A stretch of DNA of 64,000 nt from Pyrinomonadaceae bacterium (GCA_036004125.1 DASYRR010000170.1:15611-79610); one strand, 5' to 3'; shown: positions 1 through 56,662, numbered from the stretch's first letter. Made by a program: numbers and translations. Notes: generated by a model not told the origin, from the sequence alone.

Positions 1-995
1 GCGGCAAGGTCGAGTGGAGTAAGGAGTTCCACAACGGCCGACCGCCCGGTGGACGCCACCGCAAAAACAGCTTTGCTTCAGAGAGCCCTGTCACCGATGG
101 ACGGCACGTTTATGTGTATATAGCGAATCTTGGGCTATGGGCATTTGACATGAAGGGCAAGCTGGCCTGGACAACTCCGCTCGAAGCGAATCCGATGTAC
201 CTCGACTTCGGAACAGGGAGTTCGCCGGCGCTGGCCGGGAATCTGCTGGTGATCGTCAGCGACAACGAAAAGCAACAGTACATCGCCGCGTTTGACAAAC
301 AAACAGGTAAGCAAGCCTGGCGCACGAATCGGGACCTTGGCGGCAAAGGACAACCAGTGCTGCGGTCGGGATGGGCCACACCATTTGTTTGGCGGCACGC
401 TTTGCGTACAGAGATCGTTACCATTGGACCAGGGGAGTCTGTTAGTTACGACCTGACGGGAAAAGAGCTGTGGCGTTTGTCTGGAATGGCCTTGAACCCT
501 ATTCCAACGCCCTTTGCTTATGACGGATTACTCTATATTAATGGCGGACGAGGACGTCCATTGTTCGCGCTTAAACCAGGCGCTGCGGGAGACATTTCTC
601 TAGGAAAGGATCAGACAGCAAATGAGTATGTTGTCTGGTCGCAAGCGCGAGCTGGAACATATCTGCCGTCGGCCCTCGCTTATGAAGGAGCTGTGTATAC
701 ACTGACTGAGACCGGCATCCTCACTCGCTTTGACGCCAAGACTGGAAAACAAACTTACAAAACCAGGATTGATCCGGCAGCAACGGCTTTTACGACGTCG
801 CCATGGGCGTCTAACGGCAAGCTGTTCTGCCTGAGTGAGGAAGGACAAACGTTCGTGGTCGGAACGGGCGAGGAGTTCCGATTATTCCACGTGAATGACC
901 TTGACGACATGGCCCAGGCATCGCCAGCATTAGTGGGTGACCGCTTGTTGATACGAACAGAGCATCGGCTTTACTCGTTCCGACAGAAAAGCTAG
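1..995 (+). CDS. PQQ-like / BamB-like beta-propeller repeat protein, 5' end outside window
   Basis: The frame of ORF 114..995 stays open back to base 3 (GKVEWSKEFHNG...), so the gene enters from upstream. It has repeated blade-like segments (LYINGG, VYTLTETGILTRFDAKTGK, LFCLSEEGQTFVV). Confidence 0.65.
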   Translation, partial: GKVEWSKEFHNGRPPGGRHRKNSFASESPVTDGRHVYVYIANLGLWAFDMKGKLAWTTPLEANPMYLDFGTGSSPALAGNLLVIVSDNEKQQYIAAFDKQTGKQAWRTNRDLGGKGQPVLRSGWATPFVWRHALRTEIVTIGPGESVSYDLTGKELWRLSGMALNPIPTPFAYDGLLYINGGRGRPLFALKPGAAGDISLGKDQTANEYVVWSQARAGTYLPSALAYEGAVYTLTETGILTRFDAKTGKQTYKTRIDPAATAFTTSPWASNGKLFCLSEEGQTFVVGTGEEFRLFHVNDLDDMAQASPALVGDRLLIRTEHRLYSFRQKS

Positions 996-1216
996 CGCAC
1001 GAAGGTCGACTGAGAATAGTTAAGAGGATTCAGAGTACTCGAGGGTGGGCGCTACAGTGCGCACCTAAACAAGTAAACTTGGAAAGGCATCAGAGAGGTG
1101 TCATGCCTTTCACGAGAAATGCGAAAACTATCAGAATCTAACACGCTTAGCGTACTTAGATGACGTTCTTTCGTCTAATAACTAGTTAGCTGGCGCTGAA
1201 GCTAGGAGGTTAAATC

Positions 1217-1897
1217 ATGAAGACCGTATTTCGCCTCAAGTGGACCGCGGCAAACGCGCTCGGGCTCGGGGTGGCTTTCGTCGCCTACCTGCAGATCGGC
1301 ATGTTGGCCAAGTACGGGCTCGACTTCGAGCGGTACTGGCAGTGGCAGGAGCAGGCGGTCGGGCACAGTATTGTCTACTATGCCGGCATCCTGCTCTCGC
1401 TCTCCATGGCGGGCGCCATCCTCGGTGCGTCCCAGGCCCTGGTCCTTCGCTCCCACCGCCTGCGGGTCATTTCCTGGGTGCTCGCAACCGCCCTGGGATT
1501 CGCCCTCCTCGCGGCCGTTTTCTGGCCACTCATGGCCAATGGAGTGCTGGGTATCATCCCGGGCCCCGTGGAGCCAATCCTCTTCACGGTCGGGGGCTGC
1601 ATTTTGGCCGGGATCTGCCAATATCTGGTGCTGCGCCGACAGGGGATTGCCGCTTCCCGGTGGCTGTTGGTTTGGGTCGTAGGCGTCATCGGGGGCCTCG
1701 CGCTCACTGCCGCCTTCTTCATGTCTATCGAGGGACTCGGGGTTTCCTTGGGGTGGCTCCTTGACGTCTTCTTCAGCGGTTTCTGGGTGGCCGGCGTGGC
1801 GGCGCTCGTCAGTGGAAGCACCCTATTCAGCGCCCTTTTGTCCGCGCGGCCCGAGCCGGCGCTTAGCGACACACCAGTCGCTGAAGGTACGCGATGA
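1217..1897 (+). CDS. polytopic membrane protein, function unknown (cassette-borne?)
   Basis: AGGAGG lies 7 nt upstream of the ATG. The product is 226 aa with about 6 hydrophobic helices. The gene is visibly GC-rich versus its neighbours and is followed by an attC-like site. Confidence 0.6.
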   Translation: MKTVFRLKWTAANALGLGVAFVAYLQIGMLAKYGLDFERYWQWQEQAVGHSIVYYAGILLSLSMAGAILGASQALVLRSHRLRVISWVLATALGFALLAAVFWPLMANGVLGIIPGPVEPILFTVGGCILAGICQYLVLRRQGIAASRWLLVWVVGVIGGLALTAAFFMSIEGLGVSLGWLLDVFFSGFWVAGVAALVSGSTLFSALLSARPEPALSDTPVAEGTR

Positions 1898-1926
1898 TTG
1901 GGACATGAGGAGGTACGATCCGCGCC

Positions 1927-1990
1927 AGCTAACACTTCGCTGCAGCGGACGGTCCGCTGCGCGGCCCGCCGCTGAGCTCAAACGTTGGGC
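1927..1990 (+). repeat. attC-like site (divergent type)
   Basis: AGCTAAC...GTTGGGC cores. The arms AACACTTCGCTGCAGCGG and CCGCTGAGCTCAAACGTT form an imperfect inverted repeat with one extra G in the left arm. Confidence 0.5.
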
Positions 1991-2006
1991 GTTCTGTCGC
2001 AAAATA

Positions 2007-2468
2007 ATGAAGCTAGCCACGTTCATACTGATGTCCTTGCTAATCGGCTCGGCATTCGTCGGTGCTTCTAGCGGGCAGAAGCCTGATCCATTTGCGAACG
2101 TGCCCGCGTCTCAGCGGGATCGACTGAAATCGCGTTTGACCGAATTCGTCGACTATCATCGAACAAAGCAGTGGGAGAGAGTCTATGATTTGCTCGCTGA
2201 ACGGAGCAAACAGGCTGTAGAAGGAGGCTTACCCAAGGATCTTTTCCTTAAAAAGAAACTCTACTCTGAGGCGAAGAAATTCACCCCAACATCTATCCAG
2301 AAAATGGATGATGACTGGTGGATGATTTGGGGTTGTGCGACTTATCAACGCGGCGGCGCCATGGAATCTGCATTGGAAGCCTATTTCCAGGATGGTAATT
2401 GGTTCTTCTCGGATATATGGAGTTCGCCTCCCTGTATTGATTGCACACCTCGCAGTTGTAAGCATTAA
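2007..2468 (+). CDS. secreted hypothetical protein (cassette-borne)
   Basis: Internal ATG of ORF 1761..2468 with signal peptide MKLATFILMSLLIGSAFVGASSG. It starts 17 nt after the preceding GTT core. Confidence 0.6.
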   Translation: MKLATFILMSLLIGSAFVGASSGQKPDPFANVPASQRDRLKSRLTEFVDYHRTKQWERVYDLLAERSKQAVEGGLPKDLFLKKKLYSEAKKFTPTSIQKMDDDWWMIWGCATYQRGGAMESALEAYFQDGNWFFSDIWSSPPCIDCTPRSCKH

Positions 2469-2480
2469 TGTATGGCGAAC

Positions 2481-2566
2481 GCCCAACGTATTAAGAATTA
2501 GTGTGGCGCGCTGTGCGAATGAGAGTACTGAGAGAAGAGGAAGCCGCCACACAATTCTGTGTTGAA
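2481..2566 (+). repeat. attC-like site (type 2)
   Basis: GCCCAAC (RYYYAAC) ... GTTGAAC (GTTRRRY). The arms AGAATT-A-GTGTGGCG and CGCCACACAATTCT pair with one extrahelical A in the left arm. Confidence 0.55.
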
Positions 2567-2694
2567 CTAAGCCGGTTTAGAGACTACTTGGAGTTTGCGT
2601 AGTCAACTTGAGGAGAGGAGAAGTGCGTGAAGCTTGGCGGTCTGGAAGAGAATGAGTGAGGAGGCGAGGGAAGTCGCAGCTGAAGGAGAGGAAG

Positions 2695-2719
2695 CCAGCC
2701 ACAGAGGCTGGTTTTTTTG
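2695..2719 (+). terminator. hairpin plus T7 run (intrinsic-terminator-like, or IS91 end-associated hairpin)
   Basis: CCAGCC-ACAGAG-GGCTGG followed by TTTTTTT, about 130 bp inside the IS end. Confidence 0.35.
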
Positions 2720-2812
2720 CGTTCACAGACAGAGTTCGGCAGTGACGGCGAGAGCAGTTTGCCGCCGAGGCGGGCAGGATCGAGGAAAGAGCCTTAGGCA
2801 GCGGCCAGAGTT

Positions 2813-3890
2813 TCATGGGGCACGACCTCTGGGAGGGAGTGGCGCGAGCAGCGTGAGTGGCCCGCCGCAGTGCGGACAAGTTAGCACCGTCAGCGGCTCG
2901 GAGGTTTTTACAGCAGCTGACTTTAGTTTGCTGGTGGTGAGAGAGAGCAGTTGTCTGGCCTTCTGTAGCAGTTGCCGATGGGCCGGGCTGAGCAGGCCGT
3001 AATAACGGACCTTGATGAACCTATTTGGGGAGCACGTGTTGGAGGAAGCGACGAATGAACTCTTCGGCAGTGATGGTGCAAGGCTGGAGTTGGTCAGTGG
3101 CCGACTCTTTGTAAGTGAAAGTGACCGTGCCCTGCGCCAATGAACGGAGGCGGTGGTTACTGAGAGCGACGCGAAAGATGTAAGGGGCGAGATATTTGAA
3201 GGCTTGCTCGCCGGAGCCCACCGCTTCGGTATGCACCACCCAGTCTTTCTGCCAGACTCGGGCCTCGACCAGGGCAAACAGTCCAGTCTTTTTCAGCTGA
3301 TCACGAAACTTGGCACGGAAGATCCTGGAGAGTGCTTTGACGGGCACGAGAAAGTCTTTCCGGGCAGCACGCCAGCGGCCGTCAGCAGTCAGGCCACCAC
3401 CGGTGACGAGGTAATGAACGTGGGGATGATAGAGCAACTGTCTGGTCCAGGTGTGAAGTACGCCGACCATACCGAGGCGAGCACCGACGAAGCGCGGGTC
3501 CTGGGCCAGTTGCAGTAAGGCCGCGGCAGAGGCACGAAAGAGCAGGTTGTAGATCGTCTTCTGCTGGCTGCGGGCCAGGGCGCGCAACTCGGCGGGCAGG
3601 GTGAAGGTGACGAGGAAGTGAGGAGTGGCCAGCAGCAGCTGCTTTTGCTGCTGGAGCCATTCATGGGCCTGCTCGTTCTGGCACTTGGGGCAGTGGCGGT
3701 TCTTGCAGGAGTGATAGCTGTAACGTTGTTCGTCGCAGTGGGCGCAATAATAGAGTTGGCCGCCGCGGGTGGCGGTGCGACAGGTTTCGATGTCCTGCAT
3801 GGTCCGCAGATGTGAGGGCAGCATCCGGTCGTTGAACTTGGCTCGATACGCAGGCCCATGCAGCCCAAAGATCTCGGCCACTTCCAGCAT
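2813..3890 (-). pseudogene. IS91-family HUH/Y2 rolling-circle transposase, interrupted by a 1-nt frameshift near 3022
   Basis: Zn-binding N-terminus (CAHCDEQRYSYHSCKNRHCPKC), HUH-type HPHVHYLV, and a YLAPY tyrosine pair. The main ORF stops at ...FLQHVLPK*. The expected continuation FIKVRYYGLLS...CPHCGG is in ORF 2813..3277, one frame over. Confidence 0.85.
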
Positions 3891-3897
3891 CAGCGGC

Positions 3898-4764
3898 TCA
3901 GAGATCGCTCATGAGCTGGTTGATGGCCGCGGCACCGAGTTGTTCGGCTTTCGCGGTCAGGTGCGTATAGACGCTGGTGGTGGCCGGCGAAGAATGCCCG
4001 AGCCACTCCTGAATCAGCCGCAGGTTAACGCCAGCTTCCAACAGATGCGTGGCCCAGGAGTGGCGCAGCGTGTGCACCGAAGCGCGTTTGTGGTTGCCGC
4101 TCTCTTTCAACGCCACGTGGAAAGCGTCCTGCACGCTGCTCTTGGACATCGGCTCGGTAGCGCGCGCCAAGTCGATATGGTTACGGCCTGCTGCGGGAAA
4201 CAGCAGTACCGGATTGTGATGCTCTTTCCAATACTGGCGCAGCAACTGCAGGGTTCGTTCCGGCAGCGGGACATAACGGTCTTTGGCGCCCTTGCCGTGG
4301 CGCACGTGAATCATCAGGCGCGCGCTGTCAATGTCGGCGACTTGCAGATGGGTACCTTCCTGGAGCCGCAAGCCGCAGGAGTAGATGGTGCTGAGACAAA
4401 CCTCGTAGCGCGGCAGTCTTACGCGCTCGAGAATCTGGCGCACTTCCGCACGGCTGAGGATGACCGGCAGTTTCTTTTCCGGCGCTGGACGCACCAGGTT
4501 GAAGATGGTCCATTCTTTTTCCAGCGTGCGCTCGAAGAAGAACTTGATGCCACAGATGGCGATGGTCGCAGTGTTGCGTGAGTAATGCTTGACGTTCTTG
4601 AGATAAAGGAAGTACTGACGCAGCTCTTCTTCGCTGATCAAGTCCGGTGACTTGTGATAGTGTTCCGCCAGTTGGCGCACGGCCCGCACGTAATTCTCTT
4701 GCGTGCGTTCGGCCAAGCCTCTAAGCTGGAGACACTCGATCATTCTCTGACGCAGTTCAGTCAT
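3898..4764 (-). CDS. tyrosine site-specific recombinase (IS91-associated type, not IntI)
   Basis: SAM-like N-terminal domain. Catalytic signature is R (GLRLQE), HTLRHSWAT, LLGHSSPATTSVYTH. The stop lies 7 nt before the transposase start. The IntI-specific insertion between box I and HxLRH is absent. Confidence 0.9.
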   Translation of the reverse strand: MTELRQRMIECLQLRGLAERTQENYVRAVRQLAEHYHKSPDLISEEELRQYFLYLKNVKHYSRNTATIAICGIKFFFERTLEKEWTIFNLVRPAPEKKLPVILSRAEVRQILERVRLPRYEVCLSTIYSCGLRLQEGTHLQVADIDSARLMIHVRHGKGAKDRYVPLPERTLQLLRQYWKEHHNPVLLFPAAGRNHIDLARATEPMSKSSVQDAFHVALKESGNHKRASVHTLRHSWATHLLEAGVNLRLIQEWLGHSSPATTSVYTHLTAKAEQLGAAAINQLMSDL

Positions 4765-4880
4765 GGTTACACCTCCCGATAGAAATTGAATCTTTCATCA
4801 GGAAGTGTAGAGCAGGCAGTCTTGCGATTGAGGATGATCGGGTTACTACCAGGGTTGCTCTCGGCTGCGCGCAGCGCTTA

Positions 4881-4966
4881 GTTCAACAAGCGCTTGCAGC
4901 GGACTCGCCGGTGAGTAGCCTTTATTCGTAGTTGCGTGGGCGAGTCGCTCAAGCGCAGCGTTATGC
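4881..4966 (+). repeat. attC-like site, main family
   Basis: GTTCAAC-AAGCGCTTGCAGCGGACTCGCC-loop-GGCGAGTCGCTCAAGCGCAGC-GTTATGC. Confidence 0.7.
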
Positions 4967-5009
4967 TGATCCTTTTTTACACCAAGTTTGTTTAAGGCTG
5001 GTGGCCTAC

Positions 5010-5897
5010 ATGAAAGTTTGTTCGCTAATACTAATATTCTTGGCTTTTGGTTTTGATACTGTCCTTCCACTTGCAGGTGATTCCGAAAAACTGGAGGGGG
5101 TCAGTGATTACACTTGGAGAAAGTGCACTGGCAAAGATGAGGAGTTTTCTGTGCTTATGCCGGGCGAGCCATCGCTGTACCTAGGCGTCATCACAAACAA
5201 GGGCAAGCGTTCATTTGAGCGAATCTACAGTACGTATGCTAACGGCTCAGTTTACCTAGTCGTCTCTTACGATGTGACCTCCATCAAGGGCACGCTGGAG
5301 AACTTTAAGGCACATCATCTTTATGACGGTGATATTACTTATGAGCGTGATATTAGTGTTTCCGGCTTCTCCGGCAAAGAGTACAAACTGAAGTTCAATA
5401 AGATTGGTGGGGTTGTTCAGATTTGGGTGACAAAAAAACATGGCTATGCAGTAGCAGTGATTCAGGCGATCGAGCAGTCAGAGCTAAAAGACTTTTTCCT
5501 TTCATCCTTTTTATTAACACCCAACAGCGATGAGTCAAAAGTCGCCCCTGCTCAGACTCAACCTCCTGCGGTAAATCAAGTTTTTCGCAAGACCGATCAG
5601 GACCAATCGCCTACAACGGTCAAATTAGTGGATCGCAAACAAGTCATTATTTCAAAGCCCGAGCCTTGGTATACGGAGGATGCGAGGCAGGCGGGCATCA
5701 CTGGAACAGTCGTTTTGCGAGTAGTGTTATCTTCGACGGGTGAAGTAACAAACATACGGGTAGATAGAGGACTGCCAAAGGGATTGACAGAAAATGCAAT
5801 CGAAGCGGCTCGACATCTCAGATTCATTCCAGGAGTCAAGGACGATCGCTTTGTCTCCTATTGGGTTCACCTAGAATACAACTTCAGTCTGTATTGA
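5010..5897 (+). CDS. TonB C-terminal domain protein with N-terminal signal/anchor (cassette)
   Basis: The C-terminus KPEPWYTEDARQAGITGTVVLRVVLSSTGEVTNIRVDRGLPKGLTENAIEAARHLRFIPG is a TonB_C fold signature. The internal ATG lies 44 nt after the GTT core. Confidence 0.75.
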   Translation: MKVCSLILIFLAFGFDTVLPLAGDSEKLEGVSDYTWRKCTGKDEEFSVLMPGEPSLYLGVITNKGKRSFERIYSTYANGSVYLVVSYDVTSIKGTLENFKAHHLYDGDITYERDISVSGFSGKEYKLKFNKIGGVVQIWVTKKHGYAVAVIQAIEQSELKDFFLSSFLLTPNSDESKVAPAQTQPPAVNQVFRKTDQDQSPTTVKLVDRKQVIISKPEPWYTEDARQAGITGTVVLRVVLSSTGEVTNIRVDRGLPKGLTENAIEAARHLRFIPGVKDDRFVSYWVHLEYNFSLY

Positions 5898-5909
5898 GGT
5901 TCAGATTCA

Positions 5910-5998
5910 GTTCAACAAGCGCTTGGAGCGGACTCGCCTGTAAGCGGCCTTTATTCGTAGTTGCGTGGGCGAGCCGCTCAAGCGCATCAGCGTTGGCC
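5910..5998 (+). repeat. attC-like site, main family
   Basis: GTTCAAC-AAGCGCTTGGAGCGGACTCGCC...GGCGAGCCGCTCAAGCGCATCAGC-GTTGGCC. Confidence 0.7.
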
Positions 5999-6030
5999 GA
6001 TCACGCGTTGGATTTAACGAAGACTTCCTC

Positions 6031-6504
6031 ATGAAACTTCAAATCGATACTGAAGACGCTGATCTTTTCGATGGTTTTGGAAATGGTTCTCTCCATCTTT
6101 ATCTGGTTCAAGATCCTAGAAACTGGCGTGGTGAAGACCGGTACGACGCTTTCTATTTGTAGTTGGATTTCCATTTTAGAGATTGGGAGGCTCTCTTTAT
6201 TGGGATCTTAAAGGTTCCAGATTGCGACCGCTATGTTGAAGGTGATGACATCAATGAACTTCATGAACGTAATCGGAAGAAGTTCGACAAGTCGATCCCC
6301 GATTGTCCAATGCTCTCACGACTATTTGATATGTATGAAGATTATGAATTCAGCCCGGAGGAGCTCCCGAAGCTCCGAGAAGAATGTGAAATGTTGAAAT
6401 CTAGGGCCACAAATGCTGAAGGGCTTAAGGCTCTGCGCAAGTTAATCCTGGCCGCTGATGAAGGCTCTCAGCGAGGATTCCACTTAATGTTCGTATGTGA
6501 CTAG
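6031..6504 (+). pseudogene. acidic cytosolic hypothetical protein, single in-frame TAG at 6160..6162 (cassette)
   Basis: ORFs 5965..6162 and 6163..6504 share one frame and are separated only by TAG (...RYDAFYL*LDFHFRDWE...). ATG at 6031 lies 33 nt after the GTT core. Confidence 0.55.
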
Positions 6505-6509
6505 GCCGG

Positions 6510-6566
6510 ATCCAACAAGCGCCTGGAGCGGACTCGCCATGAGCGGGCCTCTTTGCTAAGTTGCGT
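6510..6566 (+). repeat. truncated attC-like site (left arm and loop only)
   Basis: ATCCAAC-AAGCGCCTGGAGCGGACTCGCC-ATGAGCGGGCCTCTTTGCTAAGTTGCGT. The family right arm and GTT core are then missing. Confidence 0.55.
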
Positions 6567-6686
6567 TGCAGAAATCGCGGAGGCAGGACAACTAACGATC
6601 AATGCAGGCCATCCTAACCGCAATGCCTGCCGCTCGCCGACTTATTGAGAAAATTGTTTCTTACGACTTAGATGGAGGAAAGTCAG

Positions 6687-7079
6687 ATGCAAAAGACGCA
6701 ATGGTTCGCAGCTGGCCTCATTCTGGCCTGCATTTCTTCTGTCCTTGCCGCGCCAACAGTCGACATCAAGACTTCTGAACGGCAGAACGAGAAAGTCTAC
6801 AAATCCACCGAAGTTTCCCGAAAAGTTACGCTTACTGCTAAACCGGAAGCTGAGTACACAGAAGACGCGAGGGAGAATAAGATTGAGGGCAACGTCATTC
6901 TCCACATGGTTCTTCGGTCTAATGGAGAAGTTAGTGATATCGCGGTGTTGAAGGGATTGCCTCATGGTCTGAACGACAAAGCCATCGAAGCGGCGCGGAA
7001 CATCAAATTTGAGCCGGCAATAAAGGATGGACATCCTGTGTCTCAGTATCTCAGAGTTGAATACGTCTTCACTCTCTAG
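6687..7079 (+). CDS. small periplasmic TonB C-terminal domain protein (cassette)
   Basis: GGAGGA lies upstream of ATG 6687. Signal peptide MQKTQWFAAGLILACISSVLA, then KPEAEYTEDARENKIEGNVILHMVLRSNGEVSDIAVLKGLPHGLNDKAIEAARNIKFEPA. Confidence 0.75.
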   Translation: MQKTQWFAAGLILACISSVLAAPTVDIKTSERQNEKVYKSTEVSRKVTLTAKPEAEYTEDARENKIEGNVILHMVLRSNGEVSDIAVLKGLPHGLNDKAIEAARNIKFEPAIKDGHPVSQYLRVEYVFTL

Positions 7080-7164
7080 AATCAGGAGCGTGATTGGACA
7101 CAGTCAATATCCTGAACTGTCGCTCATTTTGAATCCATAGGTCGATCGCCGGTATCAACGCTGC

Positions 7165-7251
7165 AATCCTATAAGCGCTTGGAGCGGACTCGCCGGTGAG
7201 TAGCCTTTATTCGTAGTAGCGTGGGCGAGCCGCTCAAGCGCACGGTTCGGC
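7165..7251 (+). repeat. attC-like site, main family (degenerate R'')
   Basis: ...CCTATAAGCGCTTGGAGCGGACTCGCC...GGCGAGCCGCTCAAGCGCACG-GTTCGGC. Confidence 0.6.
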
Positions 7252-7309
7252 GTCTTTGCTTCACTATTGTTGAACGACAGTGCGCACAGACCAGATACAC
7301 CAAGCAAGC

Positions 7310-7738
7310 ATGTGGGGGTACGCCGCAGCGTTCTGGGCTTTGATCTTCGGCGTCTTCCACCTGATCTGGGCAGCCGGGTGGTATCCGCTGTTGGATGCCG
7401 AGGGGGCGCGCATTGCATTCGCGACTTCGTGGAAATGGACTTTCGATGTGGTGGTAGCCGCCATGTGTGTCATCGCGGTACCGGTGGCTCTGGCTCCTGT
7501 GATGTCATGGGGCCAGCGTGCGCCGCGGCGTCTCATCTACACGCTTGCATGTATTGGCACGACGCTTCTGTTGCTCCGATTGGCAGCGGCTCTGGTTCAG
7601 ACGTGCTATCTGCTCGCGGCAGGCCGGTTTCGTTTCGCCATCATCGGAATCTGGGATTGGTGGTTTCTCGTCGGTACCATTTTGTTCACGTTGAGCACGT
7701 GGCGTTCCAGGCACTGGCGTAATAATCGCCGCACCTAA
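7310..7738 (+). CDS. small integral membrane protein (DUF3995-like, from memory)
   Basis: MWGYAAAFWALIFGVFHLIWAAGW... with 4 hydrophobic helices. Starts 59 nt after the GTT core. Confidence 0.55.
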   Translation: MWGYAAAFWALIFGVFHLIWAAGWYPLLDAEGARIAFATSWKWTFDVVVAAMCVIAVPVALAPVMSWGQRAPRRLIYTLACIGTTLLLLRLAAALVQTCYLLAAGRFRFAIIGIWDWWFLVGTILFTLSTWRSRHWRNNRRT

Positions 7739-7833
7739 CTAAAAGAATGCTGATAAAGAGTTGAGGCAGTTAGAGGAGAATAGCGAAAAGCAAACGAGAA
7801 TCATTAAAACATTACAAAGGGATAATCGACGAC

Positions 7834-7907
7834 GCCGAACAAGCGCTTGGAGCGGCCTCGCCATGAGCGGGCTTCTTCGTTGAGTTGCGTGGGCGAGCCG
7901 CTCAAGC
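7834..7907 (+). repeat. attC-like site, main family, right end disrupted
   Basis: GCCGAAC-AAGCGCTTGGAGCGGCCTCGCC...GGGCGAGCCGCTCAAGC, then unrelated sequence instead of GC(A)GCGTT. Confidence 0.6.
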
Positions 7908-7959
7908 ACATCTATAAAGCGAGTCAAGTGAAAAAAGAGAATAGTTCTCCCAGGGGTGC

Positions 7960-8332
7960 CGCATGGTTTTGTTTTTCTACCTCACCGCACCCAGTAGTGT
8001 GTTTCAATACAACTACCTGACCTACGCGCTTGGCCGGACAAGCCGACAGCCCACTGCCGCATTACTCCGTCTCTGCTTTCTGACCGCGACGGAGAAACTC
8101 GACATAATCAATCTCTGCTCGGCCCATGATGAAACATCTGATTAGCAGCTCCAACAACAGGTCGGCGTCGCGCTGATCGTTCTTCTGCCGACGTCGCGCC
8201 AACCTCCGGATCTCAGCTGTATCACCCACCAGTAGTTAGTGCCCCAACTGTTCCAGCAGTTCCTCGAACCAGTTTGTCTAACCACAGGGGTTGTTGTCGC
8301 GCGTGAATGTCTACTCCGATATATAATGTCAT
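7960..8332 (-). pseudogene. IS110-family (DEDD) transposase, N-terminal remnant with stops and frameshifts
   Basis: Minus-strand reads give MTLYIGVDIHARQQ..., then in other frames FEELLEQLGH* and LVGDTAEIRRLARRRQKNDQRDADLLLELL. This is the classic IS110 N-domain. The C-terminal two thirds are absent. Confidence 0.7.
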
Positions 8333-8388
8333 CGCGGGTGCCTCCTTTTGCGATTACACACCCGGGAGTTTAACTGCTTCCGGTTCGC

Positions 8389-8419
8389 GGGCGCCCGCTT
8401 TATAGCATCAGCGTTGGGC
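8389..8419 (+). repeat. attC right-arm half-site with R' core
   Basis: GGGCGCCCGCTTTATAGCATCAGC-GTTGGGC compared with family GGGCGAGCCGCTCAAGCGCATCAGC-GTTGGCC. Confidence 0.55.
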
Positions 8420-8453
8420 GGACATCGAAGGGTGTCATCCTCAGGAGGGTAGA

Positions 8454-9737
8454 ATGCTTCGTCGCGCCTTTTTGCGACTCGCAGGCTGCGTCGGTTTGGG
8501 CGTAGGCAGCACAGGGGCGGTAGTGCCGCCGCCTTCACGCAGCCCCGAAAGCGCGACCCGAGCTCGCACTCCGCCTGACCCGCAGCGCGCACAGCCCACC
8601 GCGCCGAGCGCGCCGACATTGAAGCAGAGCGCGCAGGGCTTGAAGCAGGTTTCCTGGTTCGATTGTCCCGGTGGGGGACAGGTCTCGGTCGATGGCACTA
8701 TCGCCTACATCGGGCACATGAACGCGCCGCACGGAACGAGCATCGTGGACGTCAGCGATCCGGCCCGGCCACGACTGCTTGCATCGCTCGAGGTGTCTGG
8801 GCAGATCCATTCCCACAAGGTGCGCGTCGCCAACGGCCTGATGCTTGTGAACCACGAGGCGCAGCCTGCCGACCAACCGCCGAGGGGCGCGCGCGGGGGG
8901 CTAGCGATCTATGACGTATCCCAACCGGGCCGGCCACGCTCGATAGGCTTTTGGCAGTGCGGCGGCGCGGGTGTGCATCGGTTCACCTTCGACGGGCGCT
9001 ATGCCTACATCTCTCCTGAGATGGATGGCTACATCGGCAACATCGTGATGATCCTCGACCTTCAGGACCCAAGCCACCCGAAGGAGATTGGACGCTGGTG
9101 GATGCCCGGGCAGAAGGAAAACGAGAGACGGCAGCGGCGGTGGACCGGGCGCCAGTACCGCTGCCATCATCCCATCCGTCTGGGCAATCGCTTGTACGTG
9201 AGCTACTGGCACGGGGGTTTCGTCATCCTCGACATCGAAGACATGACGCGCCCCCGATTCATCTCGGGCCTCGACTGGAGCCCGCCCTACGCTTCGCCGA
9301 CGCATACCGTTCTGCCCTTGCCGTTTCCGCTGCGCGGACGGCGCTTCATGCTTGCGGCGGATGAAGACGTGCAGAAGACCTCGCGTGCAGCGCCGGCATT
9401 CCTGTGGTTGGTCGACATCACAGAAGAGCGGCATCCAGTTCCGATATCCACATTCCAGGTGCCAGGCGTGACCGGAGAGCCGCAGCCCGAGTTCACCGGC
9501 TGCCATCAACCTTGCGAGCGGATCACCGGCCCCGAGATCCCTGTGGCTTGGTTCACGTACGGCCTCCGCATCGTCGACGTTGCCAATCCCCACGCCCCGC
9601 GCGAGATCGCCCATTTCGTGCCGGAGCCACCGACTGGTCAAGCTCGCGTGTTGAGCAACGACGTGGATGTTGACAATCGTGGCCTTATCTACGTGATTGA
9701 CCGGGACCGAGGACTGCACATCTTGGAGCGAGCCTAA
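8454..9737 (+). CDS. LVIVD-repeat beta-propeller protein with twin-arginine-type signal (cassette)
   Basis: MLRRAFLRLAG leader. Six repeats of the hydrophobic-D-x-s-x-P-x-x-P type: SIVDVSDPARP, LAIYDVSQPGRP, MILDLQDPSHP, VILDIEDMTRP, LWLVDITEERHP, LRIVDVANPHAP. GGAGGG RBS. Visibly GC-rich. Confidence 0.7.
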   Translation: MLRRAFLRLAGCVGLGVGSTGAVVPPPSRSPESATRARTPPDPQRAQPTAPSAPTLKQSAQGLKQVSWFDCPGGGQVSVDGTIAYIGHMNAPHGTSIVDVSDPARPRLLASLEVSGQIHSHKVRVANGLMLVNHEAQPADQPPRGARGGLAIYDVSQPGRPRSIGFWQCGGAGVHRFTFDGRYAYISPEMDGYIGNIVMILDLQDPSHPKEIGRWWMPGQKENERRQRRWTGRQYRCHHPIRLGNRLYVSYWHGGFVILDIEDMTRPRFISGLDWSPPYASPTHTVLPLPFPLRGRRFMLAADEDVQKTSRAAPAFLWLVDITEERHPVPISTFQVPGVTGEPQPEFTGCHQPCERITGPEIPVAWFTYGLRIVDVANPHAPREIAHFVPEPPTGQARVLSNDVDVDNRGLIYVIDRDRGLHILERA

Positions 9738-9890
9738 GCTCGGTGGCTCCCTCGTGCTGACGACCATCGCGCCAACCGGTGGACGGTTCGGTTGTACAGA
9801 TGTACTACAATCCACAAGATGATATCGTCTATCGTGCAGATGACGCGGTAGAAGCTACGCGGAGTGATTTGAGTTCAATCTGACCGTGCC

Positions 9891-9976
9891 GCCGAACAAG
9901 CGCTTTGTGCGGACTCGCCATGAGCGGGCTTCTTTGTTAAGTTGCATGGGCGAGCCGCTCAAGCGCAGCGTTATAT
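9891..9976 (+). repeat. attC-like site, main family
   Basis: GCCGAAC-AAGCGCTTTGTGCGGACTCGCC...GGCGAGCCGCTCAAGCGCAGC-GTTATAT. Confidence 0.7.
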
Positions 9977-10020
9977 GGAGCGGCTTCCCGAGTAATGCGA
10001 AAAAACCTATCATCCTCACC

Positions 10021-10224
10021 GTGAAAGTTAAGGAAGTCATCAAACTCCTCGAACAACATGGATGGTATCTAGCGAGAACGAAGGGCAGTCATCGCCAGTT
10101 CAAGCATCCCGTGAAGGCTGGGGCTGTTACCGTTGCGGGTAAGGAAAGGCTTGACGTACCACGTGGCACCTTGAATAGTATTCTGAAGCAAGCTGGCTTG
10201 AAGGATCGAGAGGACCAAGAATGA
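10021..10224 (+). CDS. hicA: HicA-family toxin (mRNA interferase)
   Basis: (V/M)KVKEVIKLLEQHGWYLARTKGSHRQFKHP... GTG is the first start after the cassette boundary. Overlaps hicB by ATGA. Confidence 0.8.
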   Translation: MKVKEVIKLLEQHGWYLARTKGSHRQFKHPVKAGAVTVAGKERLDVPRGTLNSILKQAGLKDREDQE

Positions 10225-10436
10225 GATACGCAGTTATTGTCGAAGAAGGTGAAAGCAGTTTTGGCGCACATGTGCCAGATTTGCCTGGATGCGTTGCAGT
10301 TGCAGATTCAAAATCAGAAGTGTTGAAGCTAATTCAGGAAGCCATCGAATTTCATTTGGAGGGATTGCGGCAAGATGGCCAACCTATTCCTCCAGCGTCT
10401 TCAAGCATCGAGTATGTAGACGTACGCGCCGCATAA
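10221..10436 (+). CDS. hicB: HicB-family antitoxin
   Basis: MRYAVIVEEGESSFGAHVPDLPGCVAVADSKSEVLKLIQEAIEFHLEGL is the typical HicB N-domain. Confidence 0.8.
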   Translation: MRYAVIVEEGESSFGAHVPDLPGCVAVADSKSEVLKLIQEAIEFHLEGLRQDGQPIPPASSSIEYVDVRAA

Positions 10437-10518
10437 AATGAGCGCTTGGAGCGGACTCGCCATGAGCGGGCTTCTTTGTTAAGTTGCGTGCGCGAGCCGC
10501 TGAAGCGCAGCGTTATGC
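10434..10518 (+). repeat. attC-like site, main family (degenerate R'')
   Basis: AAAATGAGCGCTTGGAGCGGACTCGCC...GCGAGCCGCTGAAGCGCAGC-GTTATGC. Confidence 0.65.
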
Positions 10519-10550
10519 GGCTAATCTAGATCTCTAGTAAGCTCCTCACA

Positions 10551-10793
10551 ATGGACTTTGAAATCGTCAGCGAGATAACGGCAATTGAAACGATTGCTAG
10601 TGGCAAAGGAGTTCGCCACCGCAATCGTCTTCGAAAACTCTATGGTGGCAGCCGTTGGCGAAAGTTGAAGGGAGTTGCTCAAGTACGGCTCTTGAATGGT
10701 AGGATACGAAGGGCCGAGATTCATTGGTATGAAGCACACGGAGTTGGCAGGCGAGAATTCAAATTAAAGTTACCGTTCTTAGATAAGCGATGA
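10551..10793 (+). CDS. basic 80-aa hypothetical protein (first gene of a two-gene cassette)
   Basis: Arg/Lys-rich (RHRNRLRKLYGGSRWRKLKG...IHWYEAHGVGRREFKLK). Its stop overlaps the next start (ATGA). Confidence 0.55.
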   Translation: MDFEIVSEITAIETIASGKGVRHRNRLRKLYGGSRWRKLKGVAQVRLLNGRIRRAEIHWYEAHGVGRREFKLKLPFLDKR

Positions 10794-11026
10794 AAAAGAG
10801 GGAACCAGTTCATTTTGCAGTCTGTCTGGATAATGAAGGCTATCGAGCCTCATTAGAGGTTGGAAAGCTTTACCGTTTCGTCCCGGATGACGAGGCTGAA
10901 GCCGAAGGTTTGCTTCGAGTTGTTGACGAGAGCGGTGAAGATTATGCTTTTGAAGCAAAACGTTTCCATGAAATCACGGTCCCGCCTGTGGTAGAGAAGG
11001 CGCTCTTAGAGGCAAATCGTTCTTAA
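10790..11026 (+). CDS. acidic 78-aa hypothetical protein (second gene of a two-gene cassette)
   Basis: Acidic (VPDDEAEAEGLLRVVDESGEDYAFEAKRFHEI). Translationally coupled to 10551..10793. Confidence 0.55.
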   Translation: MKKREPVHFAVCLDNEGYRASLEVGKLYRFVPDDEAEAEGLLRVVDESGEDYAFEAKRFHEITVPPVVEKALLEANRS

Positions 11027-11035
11027 TCGGCCGCC

Positions 11036-11095
11036 GCCGAACGAATTAAAGGTTGTCGCGCGAGTCTGCGAGCCGCACAAAATCCGGGGTTGAAC
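11036..11095 (+). repeat. degenerate attC-like site related to 2481..2566
   Basis: GCCGAAC-GAATTAAAGGTTGTCGCGCG...GCCGCACAAAATCCGGG-GTTGAAC aligns with GCCCAAC...GAATTAGTGTGGCGCGC...GCCGCCACACAATTCTGT-GTTGAAC. Confidence 0.4.
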
Positions 11096-11605
11096 TAAAG
11101 CCGCCGGTGAGTAGCGCGGCTGTTTGGTAAAAGAAGAGGAGTTTTGCGATTAGCTGAGAAGAAAGTTCGGCAGATGGCAGCACGTTTTGGCGCGGTGAGT
11201 GAGTTAGTTGGACCAGAATAGCAATTCTTGTTAGCGGCCGGCGGAGTTCGATTTCCTCACAAAAGCGAATAGCAGACAGAGAAGTAACGAGCGACGACGT
11301 TAAGCAGGCGAGCGCGGGCGGAGCTGTGTCAGGCTGAGTACGCAGTACGGAGGTCAGCGTCATGGCGGACCTTTCTTTGAAGCGGTCGTTGCCGTGGTGG
11401 TTGAGGCGGTCGTTGGCGCGGCAAGACGGTGAGTACTCGCAGTTGGCCCAACTGACAAAAGGACCTGCCGCGCGCAGTGCTCACACTGTTTCAAATGGCC
11501 GCCAAAGTAAGCGGTGCGACACGCCGCAATATCCTGCAGGGCCCGTAACTGACTGGGCAACAGGCGGTGCGTGGCACGATAGACCGCACTATGGAGGCTG
11601 TTCCA
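11096..11605 (-). pseudogene. decayed IS91-family transposase fragment (N-terminal about 40 percent, several frameshifts)
   Basis: SLHSAVYRATHRLLPSQLRALQDIAACRTAYFGGHLKQCEHCARQ matches FGLHGPAYRAKFNDRMLPSHLRTMQDIETCRTATRGGQLYYCAHCDEQ in the full copy. In another frame, VLPSAELSSQLIAKLLFFYQTAALL matches TLPAELRALARSQQKTIYNLLFRASAAALL. Confidence 0.6.
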
Positions 11606-11606
11606 T

Positions 11607-11760
11607 CTGGTTAAAAGGGCCTTCAGTCAATTACCACCAGTCACGGCTTTTACGATTAGTTACTAATTTTCAACAGGTTGCAGCCGCTTCGGATTACAAC
11701 TGTTATCAACCATTTGCGTCCTAGTTCCGGGTAATCACGTCACAAATTTGCCACAACAAA
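11607..11760 (+). repeat. copy A of the tRNA-Lys att core (CTGGTTAAAAG) plus about 145-bp element arm
   Basis: Aligns with 33541..33692, roughly three quarters identical by eye. Shared blocks are CCAGTCACGGCT, CAGGTTGCAGCCGCTTCGGA and CACAAATTTG. Confidence 0.7.
11739..11757 (+). promoter_or_regulatory. GTCACAAATTTGCCACAAC motif copy 1 (possible arm-type recombinase or Xis site)
   Basis: One of four same-strand copies of GCCACAA-ATTT-GCCACAA. Confidence 0.4.
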
Positions 11761-11832
11761 ACTGCGCCGTCCTTTGACGCGACGCTGATGTGTGTTCATC
11801 ACCCTACGCGAGAAAGTAGCGGTGACGAAAGG

Positions 11833-12012
11833 CTATCGTCGTAAGACAAATAGAAGAACGATCGCGGCCGCCACGATCACTGCGAGTATGAATCCGCCCA
11901 GGACGACCTTGTCAATCATTCGCTCCCCATCGAGATTCAGCGCGCAGGTGGTGCAGCCGCGCGAATTCGGATCGATTATATTGCCGCAGTCGCGGCAAGG
12001 GATAAGGTTCAT
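11833..12012 (-). CDS. small zinc-ribbon protein with C-terminal TM helix
   Basis: MNLIPCRDCGNIIDPNSRGCTTCA... then GGFILAVIVAAAIVLLFVL. GAGG lies upstream of the internal ATG. Confidence 0.5.
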   Translation of the reverse strand: MNLIPCRDCGNIIDPNSRGCTTCALNLDGERMIDKVVLGGFILAVIVAAAIVLLFVLRR

Positions 12013-12122
12013 AAGGTCAACCTCAATGCTGGTCCCTCGGAACATTACTCAAGATCAAAACCTATGCAATAATAAATCGAAGCCGTTCCATTGTCGCCTA
12101 ATTCTGAGATCTTTACTTTTGC

Positions 12123-40931: not shown

Positions 40932-41007
<76 letters not shown>

Positions 41008-56565: not shown

Positions 56566-56662
<97 letters not shown>

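Follow-up and report, generated by a model that had tools for sequence, protein, structure and literature searches.

Introduction

Clusters of attC sites without an integron integrase are known as CALINs (IntegronFinder, PMC4889954), and taxon-specific attC families have been described, including one for Acidobacteria (PMC8352920). attC sites carry extrahelical bases at about positions 16 and 23/24, opposite the bottom-strand AAC and separated by a 6-bp stem; in the aadA1 and aadA7 sites of class 1 integrons these are G16 and T23 (PMC5027507). Some mobile elements target attC sites, among them the group IIC-attC introns (PMC9229058, PMC3001079). In addition, ISShvi3, an IS91-family element with an upstream tyrosine-recombinase gene, is reported to lie beside an attC in a Shewanella integron (PMC9229058), and the recombinases of such IS91 elements fall in an "Integron-like" subgroup (10.1101/542381).

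We analyzed a stretch of 64,000 nucleotides, hereafter the window. The host is a soil acidobacterium of the family Pyrinomonadaceae. We read positions 1186-11095 as an integron gene-cassette array in a Pyrinomonadaceae (Acidobacteriota) chromosome, a CALIN with an orphan attI-like start, and give this reading a probability of about 0.93. The array is an ordinary element of its type, save for its invasion by a transposon with its own cassette-type site and an integrase-like gene. As in sedentary chromosomal integrons and CALINs, the attC sites are co-oriented, are spaced by less than 4 kb and accompany one or two promoterless ORFs apiece, they are homogeneous and taxon-specific, the cassettes are of unknown function and mixed GC content, a toxin-antitoxin cassette (hicAB) is present, and there is no IntI nearby. 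Unlike those systems, the array has C rather than the usual G at position 16 (bottom strand), a largely paired central spacer, an apparent orphan attI at its start, and an IS91-type invasion. Its sites share with the aadA1 attC (read in locus L120) the extrahelical positions 16 and 23, the 6-bp stem between them, their location on the same arm and a conserved T23. However, they are 85-90 nt long with a 29-nt terminal loop, whereas the aadA1 site is 60 nt; they have C for G at position 16, and sequence similarity is limited to AAC/GTT.

Results and Discussion

Organization of the array

The features of the array are listed below in window coordinates; a slash within a sequence marks the crossover point.

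1125..1191, + strand: orphan attI-like junction (moderate confidence); conserved ~60 nt ending ...TCTAATAACTAG/TTAGCT, crossover between 1185 and 1186
1186..1984, + strand: cassette 1; ORF 1217-1897 and attC 1927-1990
1985..2487, + strand: cassette 2, first part; ORF 2007-2468 and R'' box GCCCAAC 2481-2487
2488..2567, + strand: element-borne attC-like hairpin; R' GTTGAAC 2561-2567; with 2481-2487 makes up hybrid site a2
2568..4880, - strand: IS91-family element body; tnpA 2813-3890 and tyrosine recombinase 3898-4764
4881..4966, + strand: hybrid attC a3; element R'' GTTCAAC 4881-4887, family body and R' GTTATGC 4960-4966 (cassette 2)
4961..5998, + strand: cassette 3; ORF 5010-5897 (295 aa, TonB_C domain, GC ~46%) and attC 5910-5998
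5993..6566, + strand: cassette 4; ORF 6031-6504 with in-frame stop 6160-6162; attC 6510-6566 truncated after its loop
6567..7251, + strand: cassette 5; ORF 6687-7079 (130 aa, TonB_C) and attC 7165-7251
7246..8419, + strand: cassette 6; ORF 7310-7738 (142 aa, hydrophobic) and split attC
7910..8406, - strand: 497-bp insertion within that attC; imperfect terminal inverted repeats TATAAAGCG / CGCTTTATA; ATC at both junctions
8414..9976, + strand: cassette 7; ORF 8454-9737 (427 aa, LVIVD repeats, GC 64%) and attC 9891-9976
9971..10518, + strand: cassette 8; hicA 9997-10224, hicB 10221-10436 and attC 10434-10518
10513..11095, + strand: cassette 9; overlapping ORFs 10551-10793 (80 aa) and 10790-11026 (78 aa); hybrid site 11036-11095
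11096..11640 (approximate extent), - strand: degraded second IS91-type element; tnpA N-terminus fragment 11360-11560

Each unit of the array is an attC site preceded by one promoterless ORF or by a pair of them. In the proposed scheme, the bottom strand of the site is predicted to form a hairpin in which two bases are extrahelical. This hairpin would be cleaved by an integron integrase at the AAC of the R' box (G/TT on the top strand), and the cassette could then be excised as a circle or inserted at attI or at another attC. We infer both that the cassettes of the window continue to be mobile and which enzyme would move them.

IntegronFinder defines a CALIN as a cluster with no integron integrase in which two or more attC sites share a strand and are spaced by less than 4 kb. 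The array has at least 10 attC sites, all on the + strand and never more than 2.4 kb from the next, and no IntI. A complete integron would have an intI gene (PF00589 plus the IntI-specific domain) adjoining attI and the array; neither the 64-kb window nor the 8.8 kb upstream of it contains such a gene, and the label "CALIN-like" given in an earlier note on this DNA is therefore apt. A tblastn search of the window and of locus L001 with the IntI of locus L075 (see below) returned the IS91-linked recombinase as its sole match. Because the 8.8 kb upstream and the 53 kb downstream encode no integron integrase, the array is a CALIN and would be mobilizable only in trans, by an IntI from elsewhere.

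The earlier note proposed a search for intI and attI upstream of the window. The 8.8 kb upstream hold no IntI, but an attI-like junction, 1185/1186, lies inside the window, where it forms the array start. This junction was absent from the earlier note, as were two further family attCs that lie upstream of the window at a distance of ~4-5 kb. A five-gene block stands between these and the array, whose left boundary is thus uncertain. The junction is 84% homologous to L029:769-831 up to G/TT and divergent beyond it, and its end aligns with a resemblance to the attI ends beside intI in L060, L076 and L017. GTTAGCT(GGCGCTGA) at 1185-1199 has its complement in the R'' side of the first attC, at 1919-1933. 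That attC (1927-1990) forms a hairpin; its boxes are R'' AGCTAAC, complementary (7/7) to junction positions 1185-1191, and R' GTTGGGC. The junction folds weakly when treated as an attC, and we identify it as an orphan attI with moderate confidence. On the right, the recognizable array ends at the degraded second IS91-type element.

A repeat family with the anatomy of attC sites

A ~85-nt imperfect palindrome recurs in seven co-oriented copies at 4881-10518. The left arm, AAGCGCTTGGAGCGGACTCGCC, has seven matches with up to three mismatches (4888, 5917, 6517, 7173, 7841, 9898 and 10440), all on the + strand, where shuffled sequences lead one to expect 0; this agrees with the seven-copy family of about 85 bp described earlier. 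The right arm accompanies six of the seven, and the 6510 copy has lost it after the loop, as the earlier note had recognized in calling that site truncated. An arm search finds no further family copy in the 64-kb window, and those present are confined to 5.6 kb. Folding of the full copies, whichever strand is used, gives an 18-bp stem with two single-base bulges on the R'' arm, in keeping with the two unpaired bases that the earlier note placed on the left arm. A search of Rfam, which includes no attC family, gives no match to the palindromes.

To the window's sites we added those of public Pyrinomonadaceae genomes, for a total of 172 unique sites. Over the 18 stem pairs, 92.6% of cells are Watson-Crick, with compensatory flips (for example, C-G in 74 and G-C in 65 sites at one pair). 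The two unpaired left-arm bases reported from the window are near-invariant: read on the top strand, the first is G in 166/172 sites and the second A in 169/172 (bottom strand, C and T). With the first R'' base as position 1, they occupy positions 16 and 23; they flank a 6-bp stem and lie on the arm opposite the bottom-strand AAC, as in attC sites. An attC is an imperfect palindrome R''-L''...L'-R' of 57-141 nt with 5'-RYYYAAC and GTTRRRY-3' boxes. The sites are 60-110 nt long and 128 of the 172 have AAC where expected. Moreover, the commonest R'' boxes (GCCGAAC, ATCCAAC and GCATAAC) fit RYYYAAC and the commonest R' boxes (GTTCGGC, GTTATGC and GTTGGGC) fit GTTRRRY, in keeping with the cores first noted in the window. 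Other details depart from the usual pattern. The spacer between R and L boxes, 5-6 unpaired nt in attC sites, has only 2 nt (AA) and 3 nt (AGC) unpaired, the remainder (GCGCTT/AAGCGC) being paired; the bottom strand has C instead of the usual G as its first extrahelical base; and G-T wobble pairs show no bottom-strand bias (48 versus 44 in the 172 sites).

If crossover occurs at G/TT, each cassette should begin with TTRRRY able to pair with its own R''. The four variable R' bases perfectly match the complement of the next site's R'' in 29 of 84 neighboring pairs (binomial P = 2e-15); the figure is 9 of 153 when R' is set against the R'' of its own site, and 5.9% when pairs are drawn at random. 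Crossover at G/TT leaves just such a footprint, an R' that agrees with the following site's R'' and not with that of its own site. The window contains four perfect (7/7) cases and two breaks in the rule, one between R' GTTATGC (4960-4966) and the next R'', GTTCAAC, and one between 10512-10518 and 11036-11042.

Integron integrases beside the same family in relatives

Locus L075 encodes a 317-aa IntI that scores 455.7 bits on TIGR02249 (cut-off 265) and can be aligned with VchIntIA (PDB 2A3V) over its whole length, the IntI-specific domain included. This same IntI is found divergently next to family attCs in L060 (eight copies), L076 and L106, and a true IntI also adjoins family attCs in L017. 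L060 and L076 have intI and attI in common and diverge exactly at ...GATAG/TT; their first cassettes follow the R'/R'' complementarity rule, which is also obeyed at the attI junctions of L060, L076 and L017. The family repeats are attC sites that an integron integrase would recombine; what these loci show is their linkage to a true IntI. Boxes, bulges, co-oriented arrays, G/TT footprint and IntI/attI linkage all agree with the earlier note's proposal of an integron-type cassette array; site anatomy, array organization, the crossover footprint and the association of the family with true IntI and attI in relatives are direct observations.

An IS91-recombinase unit within an attC site

The element body at 2568-4880 belongs to the IS91 family, with ends TAAGCC... 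and ...GCGCTTA. Its tnpA encodes a Y2 HUH transposase with a zinc-binding N-terminus (NF033538 IS91 transposase, 356 bits, cut-off 125; Pfam Y2_Tnp, 177 bits; Zn_Tnp_IS91, 97 bits). An extra T near 3023-3025 shifts its reading frame; metagenome contigs of 99.9% identity carry the gene in intact form (358 aa). The adjacent 288-aa recombinase (3898-4764, - strand) is IntI-like but is not an IntI. It scores 184.9 bits on TIGR02249, in two stretches and below the cut-off of 265, and at the IntI-specific domain it has 31 residues against 65 in VchIntIA (PDB 2A3V), which makes it ~34 aa shorter there. Thus, the earlier statement that the interval holds no integrase with the IntI-specific insertion stands, but it had overlooked this IS91-linked tyrosine recombinase.

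The unit is lodged in the R'' box of a host attC, and the sites at its two ends, 2481-2567 and 4881-4966, are hybrids as a result. The host R'' at 2481-2487 (GCCCAAC) is complementary (7/7) to the preceding R', GTTGGGC, and the remainder of the cassette 2 attC lies beyond the unit at 4888-4966. The 2481-2567 site folds into a hairpin with one bulge (z = -3.0). In L018:3812-3842 its element-borne left arm is attached to another host R'', GCATAAC, and equivalent hairpins follow tnpA in L117, L118, L120 and L121. Likewise, the junction TTA/GTTCAAC followed by the family body recurs in L054 and L021. GTTCAAC flanks both element ends in inverted orientation. In IS91, IS801 and IS1294, one end abuts a GTTC or CTTG target, and there is no target duplication. 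RCS41_p has no duplication, and its target lacked GTTC at the insertion point. Site-specific exchange fits the element junctions better than IS91-type insertion does.

The second element is represented by its tnpA fragment (11360-11560; NF033538, 26 bits, profile positions 21-52) and by 84% identity of 11462-11598 to L017:5615-5751. The site before it, 11036-11095, joins host R'' GCCGAAC to the hairpin and R' GTTGAAC of this element; it folds poorly, and the homologous site L017:6974-7030, directly after an intact IS91 tnpA, folds well. Each IS91 element arrived with an attC-like site of its own and recombined with a host R'' box. The IS91-plus-recombinase unit accounts for two of the three sites that the earlier note had set apart as divergent. 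All three are real junctions, but the 2481 site ends at 2567, and 2481-2567 and 11036-11095 are IS91 hybrids.

The unit has the gene order of ISShvi3-type elements, recombinase and then Y2 transposase, a recombinase without the IntI insertion, and a place inside cassette arrays. The descriptions of those elements (PMC9229058, 10.1101/542381) do not include the junction anatomy seen here: an attC of the element's own, an exchange in the R'' box of the host, and an antisense orientation of its genes relative to the array.

Alternative explanations

The 288-aa recombinase might itself be the array's integrase, in which case the locus would be a complete, non-canonical integron whose enzyme lacks the IntI insertion. 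Its gene points away from the attC at 4881, in the way that an intI gene points away from its array, VchIntIA and the integron integrase model are its best solved-structure and NCBIfam matches, and IS91-linked recombinases have been reported as the closest homologues of IntI (10.1101/542381). Nonetheless, we consider this very unlikely. The score falls short (185 versus 265 bits) and the domain that reads the extrahelical bases is missing; the gene is always paired with an IS91 transposase, and the pair is known outside integrons, among other places in Herpetosiphon and Sinorhizobium plasmids. Furthermore, the unit splits an attC with cassettes on both sides instead of heading the array, and L017 has the unit together with true intI and attI.

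Two other explanations would deny the repeats a role as attC sites. The proposal that they are REP/MITE-type extragenic palindromes, clustered by chance and with no link to site-specific recombination, draws on their intergenic location, imperfect palindromy and uniform length, and on the many contigs that carry them in several MAGs. Such elements are dispersed genome-wide in both orientations and independently of gene-cassette structure. The family occurs at 68 genome loci, nearly all from Pyrinomonadaceae or Blastocatellia, and all 48 of the 48 multi-site loci are co-oriented (P ~1e-38 under random orientation), with a median spacing of 803 bp and 96% of spacings below 4 kb. Contigs of 0.26-3.6 Mb hold the repeat in only one or two 8-kb chunks each, and the genome-wide scatter that the earlier note named as a sign of REP/MITE elements is thus not seen. 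Complementarity between R' and the next R'' cannot come from transposing a fixed element, and IntI and attI adjoin the repeats in related contigs; chance clustering of such elements is extremely improbable. There is even less reason to regard the palindromes as mainly transcription terminators or RNA stability elements of co-directional genes that only incidentally look like attC sites. In a terminator scan, four copies have a small stem (CTCGCC ATGAG CGGG) followed by a sense-strand T-rich run, but the region has 12 matches against 11.2 in shuffles, which is no excess, and there is no Rfam match. Invariant bulges, AAC/GTT boxes, crossover footprint and IntI linkage would all be left unexplained. 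A terminator role could, however, coexist with attC function.

Cassette contents and secondary decay

The gene-cassette array carries short, co-oriented ORFs, as first described; they start 23-65 nt past the preceding G/TT. Cassette GC content is uneven, as the earlier note had observed, at 64-66% for 1217-1897 and 8454-9737 and 43-50% for 5010-7079. The hydrophobic product of ORF 1217-1897 (226 aa, GC 64%) is probably membrane-bound, as is that of ORF 7310-7738. Neither ORF 1217-1897 nor ORF 2007-2468 (153 aa) has a family match. Pfam matches to HicA_toxin (79 bits) and HicB_lk_antitox (52 bits) confirm the hicAB pair, which probably stabilizes the array.

The array has also undergone secondary decay: an attC has been truncated, an ORF contains an internal stop, a small insertion interrupts another attC, and two IS91-family elements are present. 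The attC of cassette 5 has a degenerate R'', ATCCTAT, and R' GTTCGGC, to which the next R'' (GCCGAAC, 7834) is complementary (7/7). The latter belongs to the cassette 6 attC, which had been taken for a short site at 7834-7907; it actually runs to 7909, is interrupted by the 497-bp insertion, and resumes at 8407, with R' GTTGGGC at 8413-8419. Positions 8395-8420 match the 3' end of the 5910 site.

The insertion may be a degraded IS110-family element; its sole family match is a weak one to DEDD_Tnp_IS110 (E = 0.18), and its right end recurs in L014 and L026. The IS1111-attC group of the IS110 family consists of attC-targeting mobile elements. Like such elements, the 2488-4887 unit and the 7910-8406 insertion are both located within attC sites, and their orientation with respect to the array is fixed. 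Unlike IS1111-attC elements and IIC-attC introns, the IS91 unit carries its own attC-like site and an IntI-like recombinase, and its junctions look like site-specific exchange at the R'' box rather than DEDD transposition or retrohoming.

The overlapping gene pair of cassette 9 (10551-10793 and 10790-11026) has no family match. A homologous pair is found at L001:4581-5122, and there, too, an attC follows it.

Seven attC-like repeats and their relatives

The window contains seven copies of an imperfect palindrome of about 85 nt, at 4881-10518. Its 22-nt left arm, AAGCGCTTGGAGCGGACTCGCC, occurs seven times with up to three mismatches allowed, always on the + strand (starts at 4888, 5917, 6517, 7173, 7841, 9898 and 10440), while shuffled sequences lead us to expect none; the repeat family proposed in the earlier note is thus borne out. 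The right arm, GGCGAGCCGCTCAAGCGC, accompanies six of the seven left arms and is missing from the copy at 6510, which ends past the loop. No further family copies turned up when all 64 kb were searched with a profile. As had been predicted, full copies fold on either strand into three 6-bp helices with two single-base bulges between them, both on the arm adjoining RYYYAAC.

We examined whether these repeats are attC sites through the defining properties of such sites, namely distribution, structure, bulge positions, crossover footprint and linkage to a true integron. We scanned one genome from each species for the two arms and obtained 68 loci, almost all of them in Pyrinomonadaceae or Blastocatellia metagenome-assembled genomes; a profile made from the copies in the window then recovered 199 sites in the window and the fetched loci. 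In every locus with at least two sites (48/48), all sites lie on the same strand. The spacing between sites has a median of 803 bp and is below 4 kb in 96% of cases, and on contigs of 0.26-3.6 Mb the family is confined to one or two 8-kb chunks per contig. Thus, the family is arrayed and not dispersed, which answers the earlier note's question about genome-wide scatter. Three loci binned as Nitrospirales, Verrucomicrobiota and an unclassified "bacterium" (L008, L018 and L063) carry the same family, pointing to binning errors or to cassette transfer across phyla.

Tabulated over the 18 stem pairs, 172 unique sites show Watson-Crick pairing in 92.6% of cells, and compensatory changes are two-sided (one pair, for example, is C-G in 74 sites and G-C in 65). 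The bulged bases of the top strand are G in 166/172 and A in 169/172, corresponding to C and T on the bottom strand. Numbered along the arm from the start of the left box, R'', they occupy positions 16 and 23, with a 6-bp stem between. According to PMC5027507, the extrahelical bases of attC sites comprise one at position 16, usually G, and a conserved T at position 23 or 24, and the stem that separates the outermost of them must be 6 bp long. Under the same numbering, the aadA1 attC of locus L120 also has bulges at 16 and 23, and the geometry of the family is therefore canonical. However, family sites differ from the usual attC in having C rather than G at position 16 and a mostly paired central spacer.

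In the right box, R', the integron integrase, IntI, performs strand exchange at G|TT, such that a resident cassette starts with TTRRRY of its own attC. The R' of one site should consequently complement the R'' of the following site and not its own. The four variable bases of R' match the next site's R'' perfectly in 29/84 neighboring pairs (mean 2.57 of 4), compared with 9/153 for the site's own R'' (mean 1.74) and 5.9% for random pairs (P = 2e-15). Four junctions in the window match in full.

Perfect 7/7 R'/R'' junctions in the window
1185-1191 with 1927-1933, + strand
1984-1990 with 2481-2487, + strand
2561-2567 with 4881-4887, + strand
7245-7251 with 7834-7840, + strand

A G|TT footprint of this kind can serve to validate attC sites from sequence with no covariance model. 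G-T wobbles, counted as a sign of bottom-strand selection, show no bias (48 versus 44), and Rfam gave no match in window 1-12500 at the gathering threshold or at E <= 1. Promoter and terminator scans performed the same as on shuffles. In the second of the two loop subtypes, a small stem (CTCGCC ATGAG CGGG) precedes a T-rich run on the sense strand, a feature detected by the terminator scan at 6533-6557, 7857-7881, 9914-9938 and 10456-10480; attC sites of this subtype might also terminate transcripts.

Linkage to a true integron

The same sites occur beside an integrase. In L060, an eight-site array, the divergently transcribed neighbor matches the first 181 profile positions of the integron integrase model TIGR02249 (233 bits). 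A full-length, near-identical copy of 317 aa in L075 reaches 455.7 bits, above the cut-off of 265, and its alignment with VchIntIA (PDB 2A3V) runs from end to end, IntI-specific segment included. This intI recurs in two further contigs, L076 and L106, where family attCs lie on the strand opposite to it. L060 and L076 share intI plus ~130 nt; ...AATTAGATAG|TT marks the exact point at which they diverge. The first cassette of L060 starts TTAGAT and has an attC R'' of ATCTAAC, while that of L076 starts TTCGGT and has ACCGAAC. On this comparison, the divergence point is an attI junction, occupied by two different first cassettes.

Taken together, distribution, structure, bulge positions, crossover footprint and IntI linkage make the identification of the family repeats as attC sites very secure. 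Acidobacterial attC families and CALINs, which are attC clusters without an integron integrase, were previously known (PMC8352920, PMC4889954), and the array in the window therefore belongs to a known kind. What it adds is an attC family and an attI junction, both well supported, from the Pyrinomonadaceae, which are common in soil but seldom cultured.

Cassettes and borders of the array

Cassette genes in the window
1217-1897, + strand, hydrophobic protein with no family match, probably membrane
2007-2468, + strand, protein with no family match
5010-5897 and 6687-7079, + strand, two TonB_C proteins (domain match)
7310-7738, + strand, hydrophobic protein, probably membrane
8454-9737, + strand, LVIVD-repeat protein (domain match)
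9997-10436, + strand, hicA and hicB (domain match)
10551-11026, + strand, overlapping gene pair with no family match

The open reading frame (ORF) map agrees with the description of one + strand ORF or ORF pair ahead of each site, and the claimed hicAB pair and differences in GC content are both present, the latter with values for single cassettes between 43% and 66%. Look-ups of the LVIVD protein and of the downstream sigma factor brought up only contigs shorter than 2 kb and thus did not show how cassettes differ among samples. The pair at 10551-11026, encoding 80 and 78 aa, has no Pfam or NCBIfam match. Overlapping pairs of ~80 aa occur in two cassettes, this one and one at L001:4581-5052, on a metagenome contig reaching upstream of the window, again with no family match; their layout suggests an unclassified toxin-antitoxin-like pair.

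A tblastn search with the L075 IntI found no integron integrase in the 64-kb window or in 8.8 kb of upstream sequence, taken from a 99.9%-identical metagenome contig, in agreement with the claim that no IntI with the specific insertion is present. The upstream inspection that had been proposed for intI and attI therefore yielded no intI within 8.8 kb, but an attI-like junction lies inside the window. The first junction there is 1185|1186. The ~60 nt to its left (within segment 1125-1191) are homologous to L029:769-831, with homology stopping at G|TT and different cassettes downstream in the two genomes. The end of 1125-1185, TAAT..TAG|TT, resembles the attI ends that adjoin intI in L060, L076 and L017. 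With moderate confidence, we consider 1185|1186 a putative orphan attI; a short attC at 1134-1191 was rejected, as this segment folds weakly and aligns better with attI ends.

Two further family attCs lie upstream, at L001:4466-4536 and 5058-5122, ~4.3 and 3.7 kb before window position 1. One is preceded by a metallo-beta-lactamase-fold gene and the other by a 77-aa and 76-aa gene pair homologous to that at 10551-11026. Between them and the array in the window is a block of five genes (MOSC, sulfatase, unknown, glyoxalase and PQQ propeller). Given the absence of an integrase, the orphan attI-like junction and the separation of the upstream attCs by this block, the locus is one CALIN or two, and the CALIN-like reading of the earlier note, a cassette array lacking a local integrase, is upheld. 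Two tRNA genes (40935-41007 and 56569-56650, - strand) are distant from the array.

An IS91-type unit with an IntI-like recombinase

The array is interrupted at 2568-4880 (- strand) by a gene for an IS91-family Y2 transposase, tnpA (NF033538, 356 bits), and a gene, int, for a 288-aa tyrosine recombinase. In the window tnpA is frameshifted by one extra T in a T-run at 3023-3025, while 99.9%-identical metagenome contigs have it intact (358 aa); the extra T is either a genuine mutation that inactivates the gene or an error in sequencing the homopolymer.

The best structural and family matches of the recombinase are integron integrases, and it was considered as the array's own integrase. This candidate was rejected. 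The protein reaches 185 bits against the TIGR02249 cut-off of 265, and has 31 residues versus the 65-residue IntI-specific region of VchIntIA. IS91-linked recombinases have been placed as the closest IntI homologs, without the IntI insertion (10.1101/542381), a placement with which the window protein agrees. The same two-gene unit occurs in L017 (a complete integron) and L054, on plasmids of Herpetosiphon, Photobacterium, Salinivibrio and Sinorhizobium, and on the IncC plasmid RCS41_p of E. coli, where it lies inside a class 1 integron with aadA1 on one side and qacEdelta1 on the other.

Hybrid attC sites at the ends of the unit

Read in gene sense, the unit runs from ...GTTGAAC|(G/T)AAGC-hairpin through int and tnpA to GGCTT|GTTCAAC, a ~45-nt hairpin and GTTRRRY; its genes are antisense to the array. 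In RCS41_p, the int side is the aadA1 attC body with R'' altered from GTCTAAC to GTTCAAC, and the tnpA side is the aadA1 R'' followed by a hairpin conserved among Vibrionaceae copies. An intact aadA1 attC, as expected for the empty site, is found as a 100% contiguous match in many plasmids. Accordingly, the element has its own attC-like site (R'' GTTCAAC, R' GTTGAAC) and has exchanged with the host attC at R'', not at R'. Units with hybrid junctions are found at window 2488-4887, L017:4532-7030, L054:672-1711, L118:3379-5650 and L120:3333-5668.

Hybrid sites in the window
2481-2567, host R'' GCCCAAC joined to the element hairpin
4881-4966, element R'' joined to a family-type host body
11036-11095, the equivalent for a second, degraded element, with a hairpin homologous to the one after the L017 tnpA

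Three sites had been set apart as divergent. They are indeed junction sites, but 2481-2567 and 11036-11095 are hybrids with IS91-type elements. In L018 the same element arm stands on another host R'', GCATAAC|GTATTAAGAATTAGTGTGGCGCG. Orientation relative to the array is identical in all embedded cases examined (two in the window, L017, L054, L021, L026, L118 and L120), and junction anatomy matches among Pyrinomonadaceae, an array on a Salinivibrio plasmid and a clinical class 1 integron, there in the aadA1 attC. The empty site for the window unit, which would read GCCCAAC-AAGCGCTTGCAGCGG, was not found; all contigs with the 145-aa cassette protein also carry the unit.

These units may be widespread integron parasites with their own attC-like site that enter by site-specific exchange at the host R'' box, a reading to which we assign a probability of about one half. 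The recombinase is IntI-like yet devoid of the domain that reads extrahelical bases, and exchange at R'' would take place at the end opposite the canonical IntI crossover. Such integration would equal a backward cassette insertion via the "wrong" strand, with the IS91 rolling-circle transposase possibly providing the single-stranded circle required. We infer that the element's own recombinase carries out the exchange. Of specialist interest is this element, which apparently enters attC sites on the R'' side. If its IntI-like enzyme does exchange DNA there, it would be a natural counterpart of IntI with the opposite choice of end, from IntI's closest known relatives, and would bear on how integron integrases gained strand selectivity and on the invasion and rearrangement of arrays, clinical class 1 integrons included. 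Literature searches brought up no report of IS91-recombinase units inserting at the R'' box of attC sites, but coverage was incomplete and this does not prove novelty; the nearest mention is of ISShvi3 adjoining an attC in a Shewanella integron (PMC9229058).

The attC at 5910 has GTTCAAC as its R'' (5910-5916), the box typical of the element, while the preceding R', GTTATGC, predicts GCATAAC; this may be the scar of an earlier insertion and loss. In the complete integron L017, the hybrid attC downstream of the unit contains a 21-nt tandem duplication (two copies of GACAACAATCCTTAATTTGTT, 7010-7051).

Other decay in the array

The site described as ending at 7907 is a family attC starting at 7834, but it does not end there: it is split by a 497-bp insertion (7910-8406), and its R' lies at 8413-8419. 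The insertion has short terminal inverted repeats TATAAAGCG and CGCTTTATA, ATC at each junction and a degraded reading frame. It may be an IS110 remnant, but the similarity is weak, with a single faint match (E = 0.18), no NCBIfam match and no intact copy in the fetched loci. Its right end is found again in L014 and L026. The cassette ORF at 6031-6504 is broken by an in-frame TAG (6160-6162) and is followed by the attC at 6510-6566, without a right arm; this cassette, together with its attC, looks decayed.
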